From the NCBI GenBank assembly GCA_035390665.1, contig DAOOUC010000010.1:1-19482 (forward strand): a stretch of DNA of 19,482 nt, read 5' to 3'. The position numbers were made by a program, and so were the translations under genes. This document shows positions 7,307 through 19,482 of the stretch, in pieces. Origin of the DNA: an archaeon. Lineage in GTDB: Archaea > Iainarchaeota > Iainarchaeia > Iainarchaeales > CSSED10-239. The number at the start of each line of letters is the position of its first letter. The stretch's first letter is position 1. The notes under the pieces were generated by a model. It made no database searches and was not told where the DNA came from. It saw nothing but the letters and a program-made list of their open reading frames with translations.

Positions 7307-8671
7307 TTTAATTGTTTTTTGTTTCTCTTTTTCTAAAATTCCTTCTGCTGCTATAACGCCTGTAATGGCTGCACCAATAATATTTCCTGAAACTCCTGCT
7401 CCATCTCCAGCCATATAAAGATTTTTTATATGTGTTTCTAAATATTTATTTGTTTTAATTTTTGTGGATCTAAATTTGACTTCAGGAGCATACAGAAATG
7501 TGGAATCTCCATCAAGGCCAGGAAGAATCTTATCAAGCATCTCTATTCCTTCAATTAAATTTTTTGTAATTCTGTATGGCAAAGCAAGACCAATATCTCC
7601 TGGAATTGCATCCTTTAAAGAAGGGGTAATATGAGCGTGCTGAAGTCTTGAATAAGTACTTCTTCTTCCAACTTTTAAATCTTTAAATCTTTGAACTATT
7701 GGTTTTCCACCACCAACTAATGTTGCACCTTGTGCTACAAAATTTGCATAAAGTCTTGTGTTTTCTAAAGGTTCTGTTAATTTTACTTCAGTTACTAAAG
7801 CAAAATTAGAATTCTTGCCATCTAAGTTATGATTGCTGTGCCCGTTAACACAAACAAAATCCTCATATTCTTCTGTTGCCACATATCCGTGAGGACAAGG
7901 ACAAAATGTTCTAACAACATCATCATATGTTTTAGAATACATCAAATAAACAGTTTCATACATTAATTCAGCCTGCTCCTCAATTAAAGCTGCAGGGAAT
8001 TCCACTCTTACTCCAACTTCAATTTTATCATACATTTTTTCAAGATTGTTTTTTTGTGAGATTTTTTCAATCCATGAAGAATTATATCTTCCTGGAGCAC
8101 AAATTACATATTTTGATTTAAGTTCTGCTCCATCAGCTAAAATTACTCCTTGAATTAAATTATCTTTAACCAACAAATCCAAAACTTCTGTATTTGGTAA
8201 AAGTTGTACATTTTTTTTAATTAAATGTTCTTGCAATTTATGAATTACTGCCGGTAGTTTATCTGTCCCAACATGAATTGTTTTTCTTATAAATAATTTT
8301 ATGTTGTGCTTTTGAGAAAGATCAACCAAATCTTGCGTTTTTTTAAGATCTTTTGGATAATATTCTGCAGGCACTCCAAATTCTAAAAATAATTTTTCCA
8401 CATAATCTAAATATTCTTGATATTCTGAGATTGTATAAAGATGAAACATCTTTTCGTGGCTTAAAACTGGAGTAAAATGAAGCTTTCCATCTGAAAATGT
8501 TCCAGCCCCACCAAAACCGGTCATAACATCTGTTTTTTGTCTGTTTTCTACAAGTTGTCCTTTATCAATAAGTAAGATTTTAAGTTTACTATTCTTAGAT
8601 AATTCATAAGCACTAAAAATTCCAGCAGGCCCTGCACCAACAATTATAATATCAAAAAAGTTATTATCCAT
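7298..8671 (-). CDS. FAD-dependent oxidoreductase (uncharacterised FAD-dependent dehydrogenase type)
   Basis: N-terminal dinucleotide fold DIIIVGAGPAGIFSAYEL and C-terminal MAGDGAGVSGNIIGAAITGVIAAEGI. I place the start at the ATG at 8671 (MDNNFFDIIIVG...), not the GTG at 8704 used by the track. Confidence 0.75.
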   Translation of the reverse strand: MDNNFFDIIIVGAGPAGIFSAYELSKNSKLKILLIDKGQLVENRQKTDVMTGFGGAGTFSDGKLHFTPVLSHEKMFHLYTISEYQEYLDYVEKLFLEFGVPAEYYPKDLKKTQDLVDLSQKHNIKLFIRKTIHVGTDKLPAVIHKLQEHLIKKNVQLLPNTEVLDLLVKDNLIQGVILADGAELKSKYVICAPGRYNSSWIEKISQKNNLEKMYDKIEVGVRVEFPAALIEEQAELMYETVYLMYSKTYDDVVRTFCPCPHGYVATEEYEDFVCVNGHSNHNLDGKNSNFALVTEVKLTEPLENTRLYANFVAQGATLVGGGKPIVQRFKDLKVGRRSTYSRLQHAHITPSLKDAIPGDIGLALPYRITKNLIEGIEMLDKILPGLDGDSTFLYAPEVKFRSTKIKTNKYLETHIKNLYMAGDGAGVSGNIIGAAITGVIAAEGILEKEKQKTIKSF

Positions 8672-8743
8672 AAGATTCACAATAATAATATAAAGACTAA
8701 ACACTTTAAAAGATTATTGTGTATCATTTATATTGATACAATT

Positions 8744-9247
8744 ATGGAACTAAAAATTAAACCAATATTTTTAGGAAAAACAAACAATTTCAAAAAAAAT
8801 CAAATAATAAACAATTATTATTGTTTGTATTTTCATAATGGAAAATCATTTCTTTATGCAAAAGAAAACAAATCTTTTATTGAATATCTTATTAATAAAA
8901 GTAATTCCACAGAAAAAGAAAAAATTACAAGACTATTAAATTCTGAAAAGTTTTATGAATTCTTAAATGAAATACCTAATCTCAAGAATTATTCTAAATT
9001 TTTAGAAATACATTACTTAAAAGACCTTAATTTAATAAATAAAATTAATGATTGCTTTCAAGATTGGCTTATTGGAACACCTAATCAAAAAATTAAAGCT
9101 TTAGATAAAATAAAGAAAGAATTAAAACAAGAAATCGTGATAAATTATTTATCTAAATTAAAAACAGAACAACCTAAATTAAGAGAATTAAAAAGAACAG
9201 AACCAAAAAAACGCAAATTAAGAAGAATATCTTCAAAAGCAAAATAA
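8744..9247 (+). CDS. Hypothetical protein with a basic C-terminal tail
   Basis: ORF with its first ATG at 8744 (MELKIKPIFLGK...). It ends in KLRELKRTEPKKRKLRRISSKAK. No family recognised. It is divergent from the FAD oxidoreductase gene. Confidence 0.45.
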   Translation: MELKIKPIFLGKTNNFKKNQIINNYYCLYFHNGKSFLYAKENKSFIEYLINKSNSTEKEKITRLLNSEKFYEFLNEIPNLKNYSKFLEIHYLKDLNLINKINDCFQDWLIGTPNQKIKALDKIKKELKQEIVINYLSKLKTEQPKLRELKRTEPKKRKLRRISSKAK

Positions 9248-10195
9248 TTAAATCAATTTAGAAAAATCAGAACTTATAAAACCACTTGCTTTTGGATGTC
9301 CGTTCCCTCCATATTTCTTAGCAATTTGGGAACAATCAATATTTTTTGATCTAAGGCTTATTTTATCAAAATCTTTCTGATCTTCTCCTTTGGCATAATA
9401 TCTATACCATACAATTATCATTTCTATATCTTTATAAAGTTCGGAATTAAAAATATATTCAGAAATATATCCTGCCTTAAATTGAGAATTAACAATAAAA
9501 CTTTTCACACCTTCAAATTCTATTGTTCTTCCTGTTGAAACATCATCTTTTACTTTTGTATTAATATAAGTATTCATTAATTTACCATATTCTTTAAAAA
9601 TTGGGAAACAATCTTTAAAATAATTATTATCAAACAATTTCAAAAACTCATTATTTATTTCAAAATCTCTATTTGTGTCTTTGTCATAAATCTGAAGATA
9701 TAAGAAATCTATATATTGTAAAACATCTTTAGAATCTGGCAATTGCCACGTCCAAATATCCATATCTTGAATATATTGTGAAAATAAAGATGGTTCTTTA
9801 TCAAAATATTTCCAAACTAAAACACTTGCAGCAGAGTTAATGTCTGTTAATCCTTTTATTTCTAAATCAAACATTTCAGAAATAATATTTTTGTGATGAT
9901 CTATCCAAATTAAATTTTCTTTAAAAACAGATAAAAATTTTGCCATAGTTTCTTTACTAAAACTATAGTCTACAATTACTACTTTTTCAAATTTATTTAT
10001 ATCAATATTATACTTTTTTAAAATCTCGAATATGTTATCCATTCCATAATGAACTTCATAAAAATAATAATATTTCCTTAATTCTTTATAATCTGGAATT
10101 GATTTAGATATTTTTTCTAAATAATCGTTATATGCAAATCCTAAAGCAGAAATTAATCCGTCAAGATCATTATGGTAGAAAATTATTGTTTTCAT
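9248..10195 (-). CDS. DHH/DHHA1 family phosphoesterase (NrnA-like)
   Basis: DHH motif I HNDLDGLISA, motif III WIDHHKN, and the DHHA1 signature GGNGHPKASGF (GGGH-type). 315 aa. ATG at 10195. Confidence 0.75.
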   Translation of the reverse strand: MKTIIFYHNDLDGLISALGFAYNDYLEKISKSIPDYKELRKYYYFYEVHYGMDNIFEILKKYNIDINKFEKVVIVDYSFSKETMAKFLSVFKENLIWIDHHKNIISEMFDLEIKGLTDINSAASVLVWKYFDKEPSLFSQYIQDMDIWTWQLPDSKDVLQYIDFLYLQIYDKDTNRDFEINNEFLKLFDNNYFKDCFPIFKEYGKLMNTYINTKVKDDVSTGRTIEFEGVKSFIVNSQFKAGYISEYIFNSELYKDIEMIIVWYRYYAKGEDQKDFDKISLRSKNIDCSQIAKKYGGNGHPKASGFISSDFSKLI

Positions 10196-15291: not shown

Positions 15292-15579
15292 ATGAAAAAA
15301 AACACATTAAGCATAGCTATAGTATTTGCATTAATCTTAAGTTTAGGTATAATTAATGCATCTGAATTTAAAATAAAAAATAATAACGGAATAAGTACCA
15401 GATTTAAAACCACACAACCAACATTTTATGATATGGTAAGATGTACGTGCGGTGGCGAGACTTGTGGAAATTCTTTTGAAAGTCACCCTAATGCATCCAT
15501 TGGAGGACTAATAGTATATTGCTCACAACTGTGTTCTTGTAGAACAAAAGTCGGATTTCAATATGAAACAGAATATTAG
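15292..15579 (+). CDS. Small exported six-cysteine peptide (A)
   Basis: GAGGT RBS. The signal-like N-terminus is MKKNTLSIAIVFALILSLGIINASE. The mature part carries RCTCGGETCG and YCSQLCSCRT (6 Cys). A hairpin/T7 terminator follows. Confidence 0.6.
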   Translation: MKKNTLSIAIVFALILSLGIINASEFKIKNNNGISTRFKTTQPTFYDMVRCTCGGETCGNSFESHPNASIGGLIVYCSQLCSCRTKVGFQYETEY

Positions 15580-15592
15580 AACCCCAGAAAAT

Positions 15593-15625
15593 GTAGACAA
15601 TTAATTTTGTCTTACTACTTTTTTT
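15593..15625 (+). terminator. Hairpin plus T7 terminator after peptide A
   Basis: GTAGACAA (15593-15600), loop TTAATT, TTGTCTtAC (15607-15615), then TTTTTTT (15619-15625). Confidence 0.6.
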
Positions 15626-15664
15626 ATCTCCAAATAACCAATAAATAATTTTCGCACTGGACAG

Positions 15665-15681
15665 CTACCCCCCCGAAAACA
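15665..15681 (+). repeat. C-rich motif CTACCCCCCCGAAAACA, left copy of an inverted pair
   Basis: Shares CTACCCCC-N3-AAAA(A)CA with the reverse complement of 18021-18038. It lies ~40 nt upstream of a GGTGA RBS and the 49-aa ORF. Confidence 0.4.
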
Positions 15682-15721
15682 ACCCCTCTTTGTAAGTCTA
15701 TATATATCTGGTGATGTAAAA

Positions 15722-15871
15722 ATGTTCAGAACAGAAAATAAATATAAAGATAATGTGTGTGTTATGTATAAATCGGTTGATGATCTTATACAAAAAAATA
15801 AAAGCTTAATTGGAAGAACAAGAATTTCCAATTACTCTAATCTACAAAGGAGATATTTTACAAGATGTTGA
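15722..15871 (+). CDS. Possible 49-aa basic small protein (speculative)
   Basis: GGTGA lies 7 nt upstream of the ATG, the same RBS type as vapB and vapC here. Translation: MFRTENKYKDNVCVMYKSVDDLIQKNKSLIGRTRISNYSNLQRRYFTRC. No family recognised and it is not in the ORF track. Confidence 0.25.
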   Translation: MFRTENKYKDNVCVMYKSVDDLIQKNKSLIGRTRISNYSNLQRRYFTRC

Positions 15872-16075
15872 TTTTTTGTTATGTTTTCTTCTACATAACC
15901 AAAAACTTCGTTTTTCCTTTCCCCAAGGTTTGCGTGTAGAAAAACTTAAGTCAATTGATCTATCCCGATCCAATAAAATAACAAAAGAAAAATATAGGAG
16001 GCGATAAAAAGTCCATTTTTGGAATTATAGAGAAAAAGCTAATTCTTCGCTAGTTTACTCTAGCCAAAATGTGCG

Positions 16076-16166
16076 AAAAAACACCAAAAAATAGAAAAAA
16101 CAAGCTATCAGACGACCTTTCGGTCGGCTTAATAGCTCTTATATAGAACCGCTAAAATATTTTAGC
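16076..16166 (-). ncRNA. Candidate small structured RNA or intrinsic-terminator element (strand assignment tentative)
   Basis: Perfect 16-nt palindrome GCTAAAATATTTTAGC (16151-16166). Long hairpin at 16103-16137: AGCTAT/ATAGCT outer stem, AGACGACC-TTTC-GGTCGGCT inner stem with one mismatch. On the minus strand the hairpin is followed directly by three T6 runs (plus-strand A6 at 16095-16100, 16086-16091, 16076-16081). Confidence 0.3.
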
Positions 16167-16225
16167 CGATAACGTTATAAATACTTCGTACATATTATAA
16201 TTATAAATAAATTTAAAGTGATATT

Positions 16226-16630
16226 ATGGACAATGCACAAACAAGAGAATATAAGAACGAATGGGATAGGGCTCACAAAGAAGATATAAAGATAAGGAAA
16301 AGGATCAGGGGCGCACTAATCAAGAAGACTCTTGTAGAATATAAAGGTGGTGCGTGTTCTGTGTGTGGATATAACAAAAACATAGCAGTTTTAAGTTTTC
16401 ACCACATAAATGATGAAAACAACCAGAAAGAATACGATATAAGTATCAGGATGGGCAATCGTTGTTCATTAGAAACCTTGAAAAAAGAAGCAGACAAGTG
16501 TATTCTAGTCTGTGAAAACTGTCACAGAGAAATACATCAGAAAGAACTTGATGAAAAATATAGAGAAATAGAAGAAAAATACATTGCTGGCTTAAGTGAT
16601 GCCAGCAGAGCATCATTGTTTAAAATCTAG
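16226..16630 (+). CDS. Free-standing HNH endonuclease
   Basis: CSVCGY...LSFHHINDEN...CILVCENCHREIH gives the CxxC...HH...N...CxxCH HNH zinc-finger nuclease core in a 134-aa protein. Local G+C is raised (25/60 at 16261-16320 and 22/60 at 16321-16380 by hand count). Confidence 0.8.
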   Translation: MDNAQTREYKNEWDRAHKEDIKIRKRIRGALIKKTLVEYKGGACSVCGYNKNIAVLSFHHINDENNQKEYDISIRMGNRCSLETLKKEADKCILVCENCHREIHQKELDEKYREIEEKYIAGLSDASRASLFKI

Positions 16631-16713
16631 AAAATGTCCAATATTTTGTGTAATTTAACTAAAATAAAAAAATCAAGATTTTAAGGCGATGACTTAATCA
16701 ACAAATACTGATT

Positions 16714-17010
16714 CTATTTTTCAGGGTAATATGTTTTTGTTGTAACAGATGTGCCAGTAGTTGTAGTTTCACATAAACATACGGGTTTGCAGCCTTCTGA
16801 ATCGTCACCATTACAACAACAATTCCAATAATGTACATGAGAAGCATCATCATATAAATCTGCATTTCCTGGGTTAGACCCTATTAAATTGGAACTCTCG
16901 ATCTTTTTTGCATTCCCGGTAGTTACATTTGTTATTATCATTCCTATTATTACACCAATCACTAAAGCAACTACTGCCCAAATGATCAACTTTGTTTTAT
17001 CATTTTTCAT
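16714..17010 (-). CDS. Small membrane-anchored or exported six-cysteine peptide (B), related to peptide A
   Basis: GGAG RBS. The N-terminus has one hydrophobic helix (LIIWAVVALVIGVIIGMIIT). The C-terminal part is WNCCCNGDDSEGCKPVCLCETTTTGTS (6 Cys, Thr-rich tail). A T7 run lies downstream of the stop on the minus strand. Confidence 0.6.
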   Translation of the reverse strand: MKNDKTKLIIWAVVALVIGVIIGMIITNVTTGNAKKIESSNLIGSNPGNADLYDDASHVHYWNCCCNGDDSEGCKPVCLCETTTTGTSVTTKTYYPEK

Positions 17011-17162
17011 TTTTTCATCTCCGTTTTTTATGTTTTTTTATGTTTTAAATTTTAACTTTATAAAGTTATTAATAAAATTAATAACCCTATTTGTATTAAA
17101 GAAGGAAAAGTATATAAAAGCTTCATTTTTTGGTTTTTTGGGCGTCCAAGTTTCTGTGTATT

Positions 17163-17720
17163 TTACTTCGCATTATTTTTCTTTGTTTGATATTTTATCT
17201 GTTGCTTTCTTGCCTTCTCACAGAGTCTTGTTATTTTTTTGTCTGTAAAGGGGTTGATGGCTTTTATGCCTGGAATCTTGTTGAAATCTTTTGTGTTTTC
17301 TGTGAAAATAAGATGAATATTGTTATTAAGCATTGTTTGTGCTAGAAGAGCATCAAAAAAATGCACGCCTGTTGAATAGGACAGATCTACTGCTTGCATA
17401 ATTGTATCAGAATTATATGACAAAACACAAAATAAATTAGAAATATTTTTTAAGCGATTATTTAATTCTGCAGGATTATCAAAACATTTAATTTTATTTT
17501 TAGTGACATTCACAAATTCTACAAGATTTTGTATGCTTATACATCCATATTTTAGATTATCTTCTGAAAGCAAATTAAAATAATTCCGTATCTTTTCTGA
17601 TTTATCTTCGGGATTTACGTTTGTATAAACAGTTACAAATATATTTGTGTCTATTAGATAAGGCTCTTTAGGGCTAGAATCTAATTTATCTAAATTTAAA
17701 TATAAGTTCTCAGCAATCAT
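17163..17720 (-). CDS. vapC: PIN-domain ribonuclease, VapC-like toxin
   Basis: PIN acidic residues are in context: YLIDTNIF, QNLVEF, FFDALLAQT, FTENTKDF. I prefer the ATG at 17720 (MIAENLYL...), which has GGTGAG 3 nt upstream, over the ATG at 17741. Confidence 0.75.
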   Translation of the reverse strand: MIAENLYLNLDKLDSSPKEPYLIDTNIFVTVYTNVNPEDKSEKIRNYFNLLSEDNLKYGCISIQNLVEFVNVTKNKIKCFDNPAELNNRLKNISNLFCVLSYNSDTIMQAVDLSYSTGVHFFDALLAQTMLNNNIHLIFTENTKDFNKIPGIKAINPFTDKKITRLCEKARKQQIKYQTKKNNAK

Positions 17721-17730
17721 AATCTCACCG

Positions 17731-17970
17731 TTATCTCTCATAAATTTCCGCTCTTGTTTTAGGCATCTTACCGCCTTTTCTAACCTTTAAAGGATTGGCC
17801 ATCAGATATTTTAAATGCTTAATCGCGTCTAATCTTTTATTTTCTTTTTCAGTTATAGTTTCAACAATTGTTTTACTTATTGCATCTTTTTTATTTCCAT
17901 ATTTGGCTTTAGCCATCTCTCGTAAAAGCTTTTCAGACTTATCATCCATTGATATTGTTATTACTCCCAT
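17731..17970 (-). CDS. vapB: RHH-type antitoxin, VapB-like
   Basis: MGVITISMDDKSEKLLREMAKAKYGNKKDAISKTIVETI has the strand-helix-helix RHH pattern. The ATG at 17970 is preceded by GGTGA; the track start at 18018 is a TTG. It lies immediately upstream of the PIN gene. Confidence 0.65.
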   Translation of the reverse strand: MGVITISMDDKSEKLLREMAKAKYGNKKDAISKTIVETITEKENKRLDAIKHLKYLMANPLKVRKGGKMPKTRAEIYER

Positions 17971-18020
17971 TTTCTCACCATTCTTTTTCCGTTTAATATA
18001 AATTAAAAGGAAGAACAAAA

Positions 18021-18038
18021 TGTTTTTAAAGGGGGTAG
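18021..18038 (-). repeat. C-rich motif CTACCCCCTTTAAAAACA (read on the minus strand), right copy of an inverted pair
   Basis: Plus strand reads TGTTTTTAAAGGGGGTAG. It sits between a TTTAAATATATA TATA-like box and the vapB start. It pairs with 15665-15681. Confidence 0.4.
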
Positions 18039-18106
18039 TTTTACTTAATTATATATTTAAATAATTAATTATTTAAATAATGGATTATTTAATTAATAAT
18101 AACTGC

Positions 18107-18179
18107 AAAAAAAATAAATGTAGAATGCGTCCAAGAAATAATGAGTGGTCTGATAGTTAATCTTTAAAAAAAATAAATG
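18107..18179 (-). terminator. Two oligo-T terminator signals downstream of the NlpC/P60 gene
   Basis: The 14-nt direct repeat AAAAAAAATAAATG occurs at 18107-18120 and 18166-18179, which is CATTTATTTTTTTT on the minus strand. The first T8 begins ~12 nt after the stop at 18191. Confidence 0.5.
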
Positions 18180-18190
18180 CAAAAATTAGA

Positions 18191-19482
18191 CTATCCTAAG
18201 TCCGCAATTAATCTAGCAGGAGGGGGATTGCCATAATCAGTAGAGGACCAATTTGCTCGTCCATTTGTTGTTGAAATCAAATTACCACTACAATCTATAT
18301 TTTGAGTATTTACTCTAGTTACTCTTGTAAAATATAATGGATATCTAAATGCGGTGTTAGAACTATTTGATAACTTTCCATTAAAACAATCATACATTAC
18401 TTTTCTTCCAACAGAAGATGCATGAATAAACTTATAACAATTAGGTTCGGTACCAACATAAATTCCTGCATGCCCAAATAATCCTGCTTTTGTAGTTAAA
18501 AATAATAAATCTCCGGGCCTTAAATATCTTAATTCACTTTCATTTCTAATTACCCCTACTTGACCAGAAATGTGCCCTTTATTCTTTTCAATAAAATCTG
18601 CAATTCCCCATCCGTTCCTAAACAATTCAACACAACGCATAGAATCATCAATATACCCCATATCCCTAAAAGAAACATATAGTAGCCCTACACAATCTAT
18701 GCCTTCCTTTAAATTTCCAAAATTTCTTATATATGCTCTATTTCTCCCTGCAAAAACATATGGAGTATTTAAATATTTGGCTGCTGTTCTTGAAAAATCT
18801 ATACTTGTTAAATCAGAATTATTTTCATTAAGATAATCTAACGAAATACGTGTTGCTTCTGAGTTAAAGTTTAATATAAAAGTTATCGGTTTTACTAAAT
18901 TATTAAATTCTGGTTCAAAATCTATAGAAAAAGAATAATTATTATCTTCTACTATTGTCTGTTGCTTTGTATTTATTTTTACCTTTAACAGAATATTATA
19001 TCCATTTATTATTTTATTTTGTGTTAAATAATCAAAGCAATTTTCTCCTTCTCTATTTGTAACTGTATTTAAATAATCTACAATTCTTTCTTTTGTTCTA
19101 GGAATAAATATATTATCAATTACTAAATCTTTATCAAATTTAGAATCCAATAAATTATCCGGAGAAATTTCATCTTCTGCCTCTTTTAATGATTCATAAT
19201 ATCTTATTATTTCTGTATTACAAAAGTTTGGTTGTATTTGGTTATATTTGTTTGAAGAGTAAAAATAAACAGAATCAAAATTAACATTAATATCCATTAG
19301 TTCAGGAAATGGATTACTTATTATTGGAGTTAAAGATAAATCACCTATAACAATATCTGAATATAGATATTCTTTTTGAATTAGTTCTTTATTAGAATTA
19401 ATATCCATAAACAAAACAATTTCTTTATCATCTATACTTTTTAGATAATACGTAGAAATAATATAAGGAACAATATCGCTTT
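18191..19482 (-). CDS. Large protein with a C-terminal NlpC/P60 cysteine peptidase domain; 5' end probably beyond the window
   Basis: AAKYLNTPYVFAGRN...GIDCVGLLYVSFRDMGY...PGDLLFL...FGHAGIYVG...FIHASS gives the NlpC/P60 Cys-His-His layout. The frame upstream of ATG 19408 / TTG 19414 stays open to base 19482 (SDIVPYIISTYYLKSIDDKEIVLF-MDIN...), with no RBS or promoter in between. Confidence 0.75.
   Translation of the reverse strand, partial: SDIVPYIISTYYLKSIDDKEIVLFMDINSNKELIQKEYLYSDIVIGDLSLTPIISNPFPELMDINVNFDSVYFYSSNKYNQIQPNFCNTEIIRYYESLKEAEDEISPDNLLDSKFDKDLVIDNIFIPRTKERIVDYLNTVTNREGENCFDYLTQNKIINGYNILLKVKINTKQQTIVEDNNYSFSIDFEPEFNNLVKPITFILNFNSEATRISLDYLNENNSDLTSIDFSRTAAKYLNTPYVFAGRNRAYIRNFGNLKEGIDCVGLLYVSFRDMGYIDDSMRCVELFRNGWGIADFIEKNKGHISGQVGVIRNESELRYLRPGDLLFLTTKAGLFGHAGIYVGTEPNCYKFIHASSVGRKVMYDCFNGKLSNSSNTAFRYPLYFTRVTRVNTQNIDCSGNLISTTNGRANWSSTDYGNPPPARLIADLG

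Follow-up and report, generated by a model that had tools for sequence, protein, structure and literature searches.

Several described gene families couple a conserved N-terminal segment to variable ends. In conotoxin-type superfamilies, a near-invariant leader precedes hypervariable small peptides with even numbers of cysteines, several cysteine frameworks occur per leader family, and gene diversity generally arises via duplication and accelerated substitution. In precursor families of ribosomally synthesized and post-translationally modified peptides (RiPPs), such as prochlorosins and precursors with Nif11/NHLP-type leaders, one leader is followed by many unrelated Cys-rich ends, and the genes are multicopy in a genome; RiPP precursor leaders are typically soluble. 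Type IV pilins combine a conserved hydrophobic N terminus with a variable C-terminal part, which often has a disulfide loop at its end. In Neisseria pilE/pilS and the variable lipoproteins of Mycoplasma, a conserved 5′ module of coding sequence serves as the recombination arm for 3′ cassettes that vary between close strains. Linkage of a CxC strand to a CxxxC helix, the cysteine-stabilized helix motif, is found in endothelins and sarafotoxins and in cysteine-stabilized α/β defensins, the CxC-first order being endothelin-type. Here, we compare with these systems two genes for small Cys-rich peptides, A and B, located in a 19,482-nt stretch of archaeal DNA (contig DAOOUC010000010.1 of assembly GCA_035390665.1, Iainarchaeales; the whole stretch is called the window below).

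We consider it reasonably probable that A and B are separate exported, disulfide-bonded mini-proteins and that B is a recombining tail allele of a genus-specific gene family defined by its leader. The organism is a DPANN-type archaeon with a tiny genome (848 kb in 21 contigs, 86% complete), and one related protein bears the NCBI label Candidatus Iainarchaeum; the G+C content in the window is 23 to 32%, and an archaeal-type S-adenosylmethionine synthetase is encoded. The two genes and their defining elements are the following:

15292..15579, + strand: gene A, 95 aa
15280..15285, + strand: AGAGGT, a Shine-Dalgarno–like sequence 6 nt ahead of the gene A ATG, read from the sequence
16714..17010, − strand: gene B, 98 aa
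16906..17010, − strand: family-defining leader of B (residues 1 to 35), with a basic n-region, a hydrophobic GxxxG helix, and TTG-N-A followed by K
17017..17022, − strand: GGAGAT, a Shine-Dalgarno sequence 6 nt ahead of the gene B ATG, kept upstream of most leader-family members

Peptide A has a hydrophobic N terminus, cysteines at positions 51, 53, 58, 77, 81, and 83, the strings CTCGGETCG, CSQLCSCRT, and FYD, and a QYETEY tail. Peptide B has an N-terminal helix, cysteines at positions 64, 65, 66, 74, 78, and 80, the strings CCCNGDDSEGC, CKPVCLCET, and LYDD, and a TYYPEK tail. An initial annotation of the window had listed both open reading frames (ORFs) with their strands, lengths, N-terminal signal or anchor helices, and six cysteines in the C-terminal half, together with these strings, the aromatic-Asp elements, and the tails, and all are present. 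It had also described both products as small exported peptides. Both genes are real and conserved, and their Cys-rich products are predicted to be exported. Homologues keep each Cys pattern, that of A in 11 homologues and that of B in three proteins (P0015, P0053, and P0119).

A conserved leader on unrelated tails

The tail of B has the framework CCC-x7-C-x3-C-x-C-x18. Only these three proteins are similar to B over its full length, and the framework common to this subfamily is CCC-x7-C-x(2-4)-C-x-C-x18. About 130 other proteins match B over its first ~35 residues only. When 1.84 billion representative proteins were searched with the leader profile, 129 clusters were found at E ≤ 1e-3, their proteins ranging from 42 to 599 aa; B matches this profile with 83.9 bits (E = 6.8e-24). 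The leader occurs in 8 of the 10 genomes of the genus, in 2 to 10 copies that are often arranged in tandem, and is nearly absent elsewhere among 215 genomes of the class. In the genome studied here, the profile matched only B (contig C10) and one further member of 340 aa, encoded on contig 17 (C17); peptide A does not have the family leader and carries a different signal peptide. Searches of Pfam, NCBIfam, and PDB sequences with A, B, P0017, and ten large members revealed no family, ten large leader-family members had no Pfam domain, and we found no description of such a family in the open-access full-text literature. The leader family is an undescribed, genus-specific gene family. The initial annotation had likewise recognized no described family for the two peptides, and Foldseek was negative as well.

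The leader of B can be divided into a basic n-region, an h-region, and a polar c-region (MKNDKTK / LIIWAVVALVIGVIIGMIIT / NVTTGNA), and the family consensus reads MKN[DE]KTKLIIWAVVALVIGVIIG...TTGNA|K. In the logo of 132 proteins, K2 (99%), W11 (88%), L16 (98%), G19 (99%), and G23 (100%) are followed by T-T-G33-x-A35, with G33 at 100% and A35 at 94%, and the information content drops sharply right after this point. At the DNA level, conservation is limited to the stretch between the start codon and the end of the leader and stops ~85 nt past the LIIW codon. Identity is highest at codon position 2 (0.85) and lower at positions 1 (0.64) and 3 (0.58), a pattern that points to selection on the leader peptide itself. 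Some family members in other genomes (loci L028, L029, L030, L034, L038, and L043) also have an upstream module in common, CGCCGAAGGATATATATATA...CGGTTCTCTTTTTTATATTAATT...GGAGATG; this promoter-like module is duplicated along with the leader.

Since the invariant small residues at positions −3 (G) and −1 (A) sit at the conservation boundary, G-x-A is most likely a predicted signal peptidase I site at which the leader would be removed. A serious variant of this model is that the leader remains uncleaved and that the proteins are anchored in type II (N-in, C-out) orientation as small variable surface knobs, the GxxxG helix packing with membrane helices. The hydrophobic stretch of ~20 residues, the invariant GxxxG, and the conserved Trp exceed the needs of generic Sec targeting, and AlphaFold2 (AF2) predicts one long helix for residues 4 to 25. 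However, the position of G and A exactly where conservation ends is the signature of signal peptidase I, and we regard permanent anchoring as a possible, though not the favored, fate of the leader.

Type IV pilins, too, join an N-terminal helix that is conserved to a C-terminal domain that varies. Leader-family proteins could be pilin-like subunits with a class III signal and a filament-core helix cut by prepilin peptidase, the tails being pilin heads. Three A24 peptidases and five PilB-type ATPases are encoded in the genome, and many large leader-family members end in a C-x13-C loop. The genome’s own pilins, however, have the classical KKGQ|GALEYLL site, while the leader, in which K-T-K precedes LIIW, lacks such a class III cleavage motif: there is no K/R-G/A before the helix and no acidic residue at +5. 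In addition, the leader genes lie outside pilus loci, none adjoining them, and no Pfam pilin or archaellin match was obtained. The pilin reading was rejected because of this difference in sites, and we regard it as very unlikely. One type IV pilus-like locus of this genome (contig C1, 83499-91993) comprises genes for a PilB-type ATPase and an A24 prepilin peptidase and four tandem pilin genes starting MKFNKKGQGALEYLL.

Tails of different classes cannot be aligned with each other, and cysteine frameworks recur among them. The framework CxC-(5-9)-C-(10-16)-C-(1-2)-CC was found in 12 clusters and CxC-(7-9)-C-13-CxxxCxC in P0017 and P0059; further types are CC...CC and larger proteins with a terminal C-x13-C loop. 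Proteins longer than 200 aa make up 27 of the 132. One subfamily (P0070, P0079, P0085, P0090, and ~13 others; loci L035, L036, L045, and L048) consists of leader-bearing proteins of 170 to 320 aa whose C-terminal YACLTxDGTLFRSxxPCN forms a C-x13-C loop and has no Pfam match.

Of the 132 proteins, 106 have an even number of tail cysteines, 14 have an odd number, and 12 have none. As a control, we counted cysteines in ORFs of the same genome: the number was even in 56 and odd in 24 of those with a single N-terminal hydrophobic segment, and even in 212 and odd in 292 of all the remaining ORFs. The genome also encodes a membrane-anchored DsbA-like protein of 451 aa with a CPYC site (contig C8, ~8440-9800; L072 1468-2823, − strand). 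Thioredoxin_4 matches at two separate places in this ORF, which makes a candidate extracellular disulfide oxidoreductase; VKOR was not found in the 86% complete genome. The even-Cys bias, the control counts, and the DsbA-like protein together argue for extracytoplasmic disulfide bonding, and we infer that the tails would be disulfide bonded.

The layout of the family, in which a hypervariable Cys-rich core follows a conserved leader, also resembles prochlorosin-type precursors. If the family consisted of RiPP precursors, a modifying enzyme would recognize the leader, and the cores, rich in Cys, Ser, and Thr, would be cross-linked in the style of lanthipeptides or sactipeptides. The tail of B is rich in Thr and Cys, and seven radical-SAM genes are present in the genome, but these are on other contigs, and no modifying enzyme or exporter is adjacent to the leader gene here, where the neighbors are GNAT, HNH, PIN, VapB-like, and NlpC/P60 genes, or at four related loci. 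Unlike typical RiPP leaders, this leader is a hydrophobic, transmembrane-like helix, and it is fused to proteins of 200 to 600 aa as well; the even-Cys parity fits disulfides. The RiPP reading was rejected on gene context and protein lengths, and we consider it extremely improbable.

Cassette replacement between a VapBC-like pair and an HNH-like gene

The segment that varies at the B locus and its conserved flanks are the following:

16654..16940, − strand: variable cassette comprising the B tail, its 3′ flank, and the final third of the leader (blastn breakpoints; L083 replacement)
16663-16904, − strand: narrower cassette replacement in L009 (blastn breakpoints)
16226..16630, + strand: HNH-like gene, 134 aa, with CxxC...HH...N...CxxCH; right-hand conserved flank of the variable cassette
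17163..18018, − strand: VapBC-like pair (Pfam PIN); left-hand conserved flank of the hotspot
17163-17741 and 17731-18018, − strand: PIN toxin and antitoxin-like ORF, the members of this pair

Different B alleles were found in four genomic backgrounds that are otherwise nearly identical. In L083, the flanks are 96 to 98% identical to the window, and the tail has the same framework and is strongly diverged, with a nonsynonymous divergence (dN) of 0.52 and a synonymous divergence (dS) of 1.17. The adjoining HNH gene has a dS of 0.028. The L083 tail is an old allele introduced by recombination and not the product of fast change in situ. In L009, which is 94 to 96% identical on both sides, the narrower segment is swapped for an unrelated tail with eight cysteines, and the breakpoint is at leader residue 35. 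L008 is 98.3% identical over 7.5 kb; its B gene (L008 9345-9800) contains 12 indel events, and 5 more are located just downstream, compared to zero indels in ten other genes (~5.3 kb of coding sequence). In L008, B is therefore a pseudogene, its decay being concentrated locally in the cassette. Overall, the breakpoints lie at leader residue 23 or 35 and ~25 to 30 nt beyond the HNH stop codon.

Between GNAT and VapBC, the corresponding interval of two more distant species is occupied by other leader-family genes (one to three), and the HNH gene there is either missing or truncated; therefore, this gene is a flank of the hotspot and not a functional partner of the peptides. It is intact in L008, L009, and L083 and truncated in L006 and L007, the remnant in L006 (1963-2163) corresponding to 66 C-terminal amino acids. 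Its product scored 18.7 bits against Pfam HNH, under the cutoff of 21.4 bits, with CxxC...HH...N...CxxCH visible in the sequence, and in NCBIfam its top match was to the HNH portion of IscB, with a score (16 bits) far under the cutoff. The order of a PIN gene followed by a leader gene is kept in L006, L008, and L070. The initial annotation had emphasized the mirror placement of A and B around the HNH gene. In the window, the two genes do converge on this 134-aa, plus-strand ORF, but the pairing is limited to one species cluster, and A is found elsewhere in two genomes. The VapBC-like region (17173-18200) is 95% identical to L006 4086-5113, while the neighboring L006 genes are only 78 to 82% identical, which suggests that the toxin-antitoxin pair was recently transferred or recombined.

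We propose that B is the present allele at a recombination hotspot extending from the VapBC pair to the HNH gene and that new tails would be acquired by homologous recombination with leader DNA as one arm, so that close strains would display different tails. The use of a conserved 5′ coding module in this way recalls pilE/pilS and the Mycoplasma lipoproteins, but we saw no array of silent cassettes close to the locus, there is no lipobox, and the exchange resembles a replacement of alleles from strain to strain and not the programmed within-strain switching of the Neisseria/Mycoplasma type. The likeness to conotoxin-type superfamilies is one of organization only: the family is archaeal, lacks both conotoxin homology and a propeptide region, carries its leader on proteins of 200 to 600 aa too, and is diversified by allelic cassette replacement through recombination.

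Replacement of cassettes behind a conserved N-terminal module, with old alleles in near-identical backgrounds, could also be a sign of antagonistic effectors similar to polymorphic toxins or archaeocins, in which a conserved export module carries swappable toxic tails directed against competitors or hosts. The island around B, which according to Pfam also encodes VapBC, HNH, an NlpC/P60 protein, and an RHH-GNAT pair, would fit such a role. On the other hand, Pfam and NCBIfam revealed no known toxin domain in the tails tested, no immunity candidate follows the tails (B is directly followed by the convergent HNH gene), and a dedicated exporter was not found. An effector role is thus doubtful in our estimation.

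Peptide A and its relation to peptide B

By inspection, residues 1 to 23 of A form a Sec-type signal peptide with predicted cleavage at MKKNTLSIAIVFALILSLGIINA|SE and with a basic n-region, an h-region, and a polar c-region (MKKN / TLSIAIVFALILSLGII / NA). The mature part of ~72 aa has the framework CxC-x4-C-x18-CxxxCxC. Among 11 homologues, which are 54 to 97% identical, A23, C51, C58, C77, C81, and C83 are invariant and C53 is present in at least 90%; the residue at −1 of the cleavage site is thus always A23, with I or V at −3. An N-A-S sequon (N-x-S) and the C-terminal VGFQYETE (VGFxYETE) are also conserved. The dN/dS ratio of ~0.15, calculated for the window and an 82%-identical relative, indicates that A is a real gene under purifying selection. 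Its distribution is patchy: A is present in 3 of the 10 genomes of the genus, and in the two others besides this one it has a different neighborhood without the HNH gene and B. A profile of A run across 41 related genomes found nothing beyond orthologues in two genomes. A is a conserved low-copy gene whose product has a signal peptide of the ordinary type, the predicted cleavage of which would leave a mature domain of ~72 aa.

The AF2 model of A, made with a 12-sequence alignment, has a strand-helix-strand core with a predicted local distance difference test (pLDDT) of 73 to 85. The CxC (C51 and C53) lies in strand 45-53, the CxxxC maps to helix 70-80, which holds C77 and is adjoined at its end by C81, and a second strand spans residues 87 to 93. 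In this model, the CxC strand and the CxxxC helix are probably cross-linked, an arrangement reminiscent of the cysteine-stabilized helix motif with its endothelin-type order. Unlike peptides with this motif, the A domain is larger (~50 aa), and the likeness is one of a predicted model. It had no PDB structure or sequence match: the best Foldseek hit against PDB had E = 1.1, no defensin or toxin was matched, and the PDB sequence search was negative.

The initial annotation had interpreted A and B as a divergent paralogous family marked by a shared C-x3-C-x-C-x-T block. In this reading, the two six-Cys knotted peptides, encoded on either side of the HNH gene, would act together, perhaps as a two-peptide toxin or bacteriocin; the annotation had named toxin-, bacteriocin-, or adhesin-like functions as possible. 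Six cysteines in each peptide and the literal identity of the block favor it, but direct comparisons were at chance level. BLASTP returned nothing (E = 9.9), and Smith-Waterman alignment of the mature parts scored 30 compared to 26.3 ± 5.2 for composition-preserving shuffles (P = 0.23). With hhalign, the A family and the B subfamily matched with a probability of 1.3%, and 9 of 100 column permutations scored as high. On these comparisons, we rejected a direct homology of A and B. The block is at chance once Cys richness is allowed for and is unstable within both families: the position of the final Thr holds T, K, or S in the A homologues, and the B homologues have 2, 3, or 4 residues in the first spacing. 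AlphaFold places CSQLC of A in a helix with moderate confidence and VCLCE of B in a strand with low confidence. The types of signal differ as well, A is found in only 3 of the 10 genomes and elsewhere in two of them, and B is swapped or decayed in strains with intact A.

A remote connection was found between A and one class of tails. The mature profile of A matched the tails of P0017 and P0059, which combine the leader of B with the framework of A (CxC...C...CxxxCxC), with an hhalign E value of 1.8e-4 over 37 columns, and none of 100 permutations scored as high; Smith-Waterman alignment of A with this class gave P = 0.002. Several leader-family tails also outscored decoys in a search with a hidden Markov model of the A domain. 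The match of the A domain to these tails suggests that one Cys domain type is located behind two different export signals. The P0017/P0059 class (c3) is in turn marginally similar to the B subfamily over 13 columns, HxWxCxCNGxD (1 of 100 permutations as high). This indirect chain is an argument for paralogy; the link of A to one tail class exists, while the tail of B is not confidently tied to A, and we consider the paralogous pair unlikely. A search of a 5.8-billion-protein set with the P0017 tail only (residues 56-108) returned P0017 itself only. The top match to the A-domain profile (15.8 bits) was P0064, a 158-aa protein with 13 cysteines and two tandem copies of CxC-5-C-17-CxxCC.

Genomic setting and biological interpretation

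Two further features were found between gene A and the HNH-like gene, outside the peptide system:

15643..15721, + strand: C-rich element at the 5′ edge of a conserved block (blastn against the own genome)
15722..15871, + strand: conserved 49-aa basic ORF within the supposed noncoding block

The C-rich element has at least 11 further copies (75 to 97% identity, 30 to 86 nt) on eight contigs, those named being C1, C4, C7, C8, C12, C14, and C18, and could be a promoter-like or miniature repeat element. The basic ORF starts MFRTENKYKDNVCVMYKSVDDLI, and similar intact ORFs are present in two species (L006 1406-1552 and L070 11400-11546). The block taken to be noncoding is 78 to 80% identical in L006 and L007 and may contain a small protein gene instead of, or besides, an RNA; Rfam and tRNA scans of the window gave subthreshold noise only.

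Taken together, A and B would represent two kinds of Sec-exported, disulfide-bonded mini-protein and not a paralogous pair. The analysis establishes that both genes are real, how the leader family is built, that its leader is conserved, that cassettes are replaced, and that even Cys numbers prevail. In the leader family, the ~35-aa leader with its basic n-region, GxxxG helix, and invariant G-x-A would direct export and would most likely be removed by signal peptidase I. Behind it are interchangeable tails, mostly small and with two, four, six, or eight cysteines, although some proteins have 200 to 600 aa. We infer for these tails an extracellular role under diversifying selection, for example, in contact with a host, competitor, or virus.

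Several points weigh against this model. With an h-region as long as 20 residues, the leader might just as well be retained as a membrane anchor. The AF2 confidence for B, modeled with a transmembrane helix at residues 4-25 and an all-β tail, is low (pLDDT 58), and for A the overall confidence is moderate (63). Cluster representatives that have a Cys framework in common are related, and counting parity over them exaggerates their independence. The proposed function draws on an analogy with other diversifying surface or secreted families, and we identified no gene for a partner, a receptor, immunity, or processing.

A bolder version, which we put forward tentatively and hold to be rather unlikely, is that of a “venom-like” repertoire. 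One leader, perhaps with a dedicated processing or sorting step, would serve dozens of disulfide-rich mini-proteins, of several cysteine frameworks, that strains exchange as cassettes at hotspots. The tails would set which host, competitor, or virus is engaged by the episymbiont, and A would be an escaped member of one framework, with an ordinary signal peptide acquired later.

Our analysis corrects the original claim about this locus: A and B do not form a pair, and the HNH gene is no more than a flank. Judging by our searches of Pfam, NCBIfam, PDB, and full-text literature, this would be the first archaeal family of Cys-rich peptides with a conserved signal and multiple frameworks. It provides small targets (60 to 70 aa) that can be easily synthesized or expressed for binding, localization, and structural work. 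How DPANN archaea recognize and hold their partner cells is largely unknown, and there are very few candidate surface determinants. The leader family shows the population-genetic signature expected of an interaction interface, namely, restriction to one genus, several copies per genome, an invariant export leader, hypervariable disulfide-rich ends, and old alleles exchanged between near-identical strains. It is therefore a candidate cell-surface interaction factor of these archaea.

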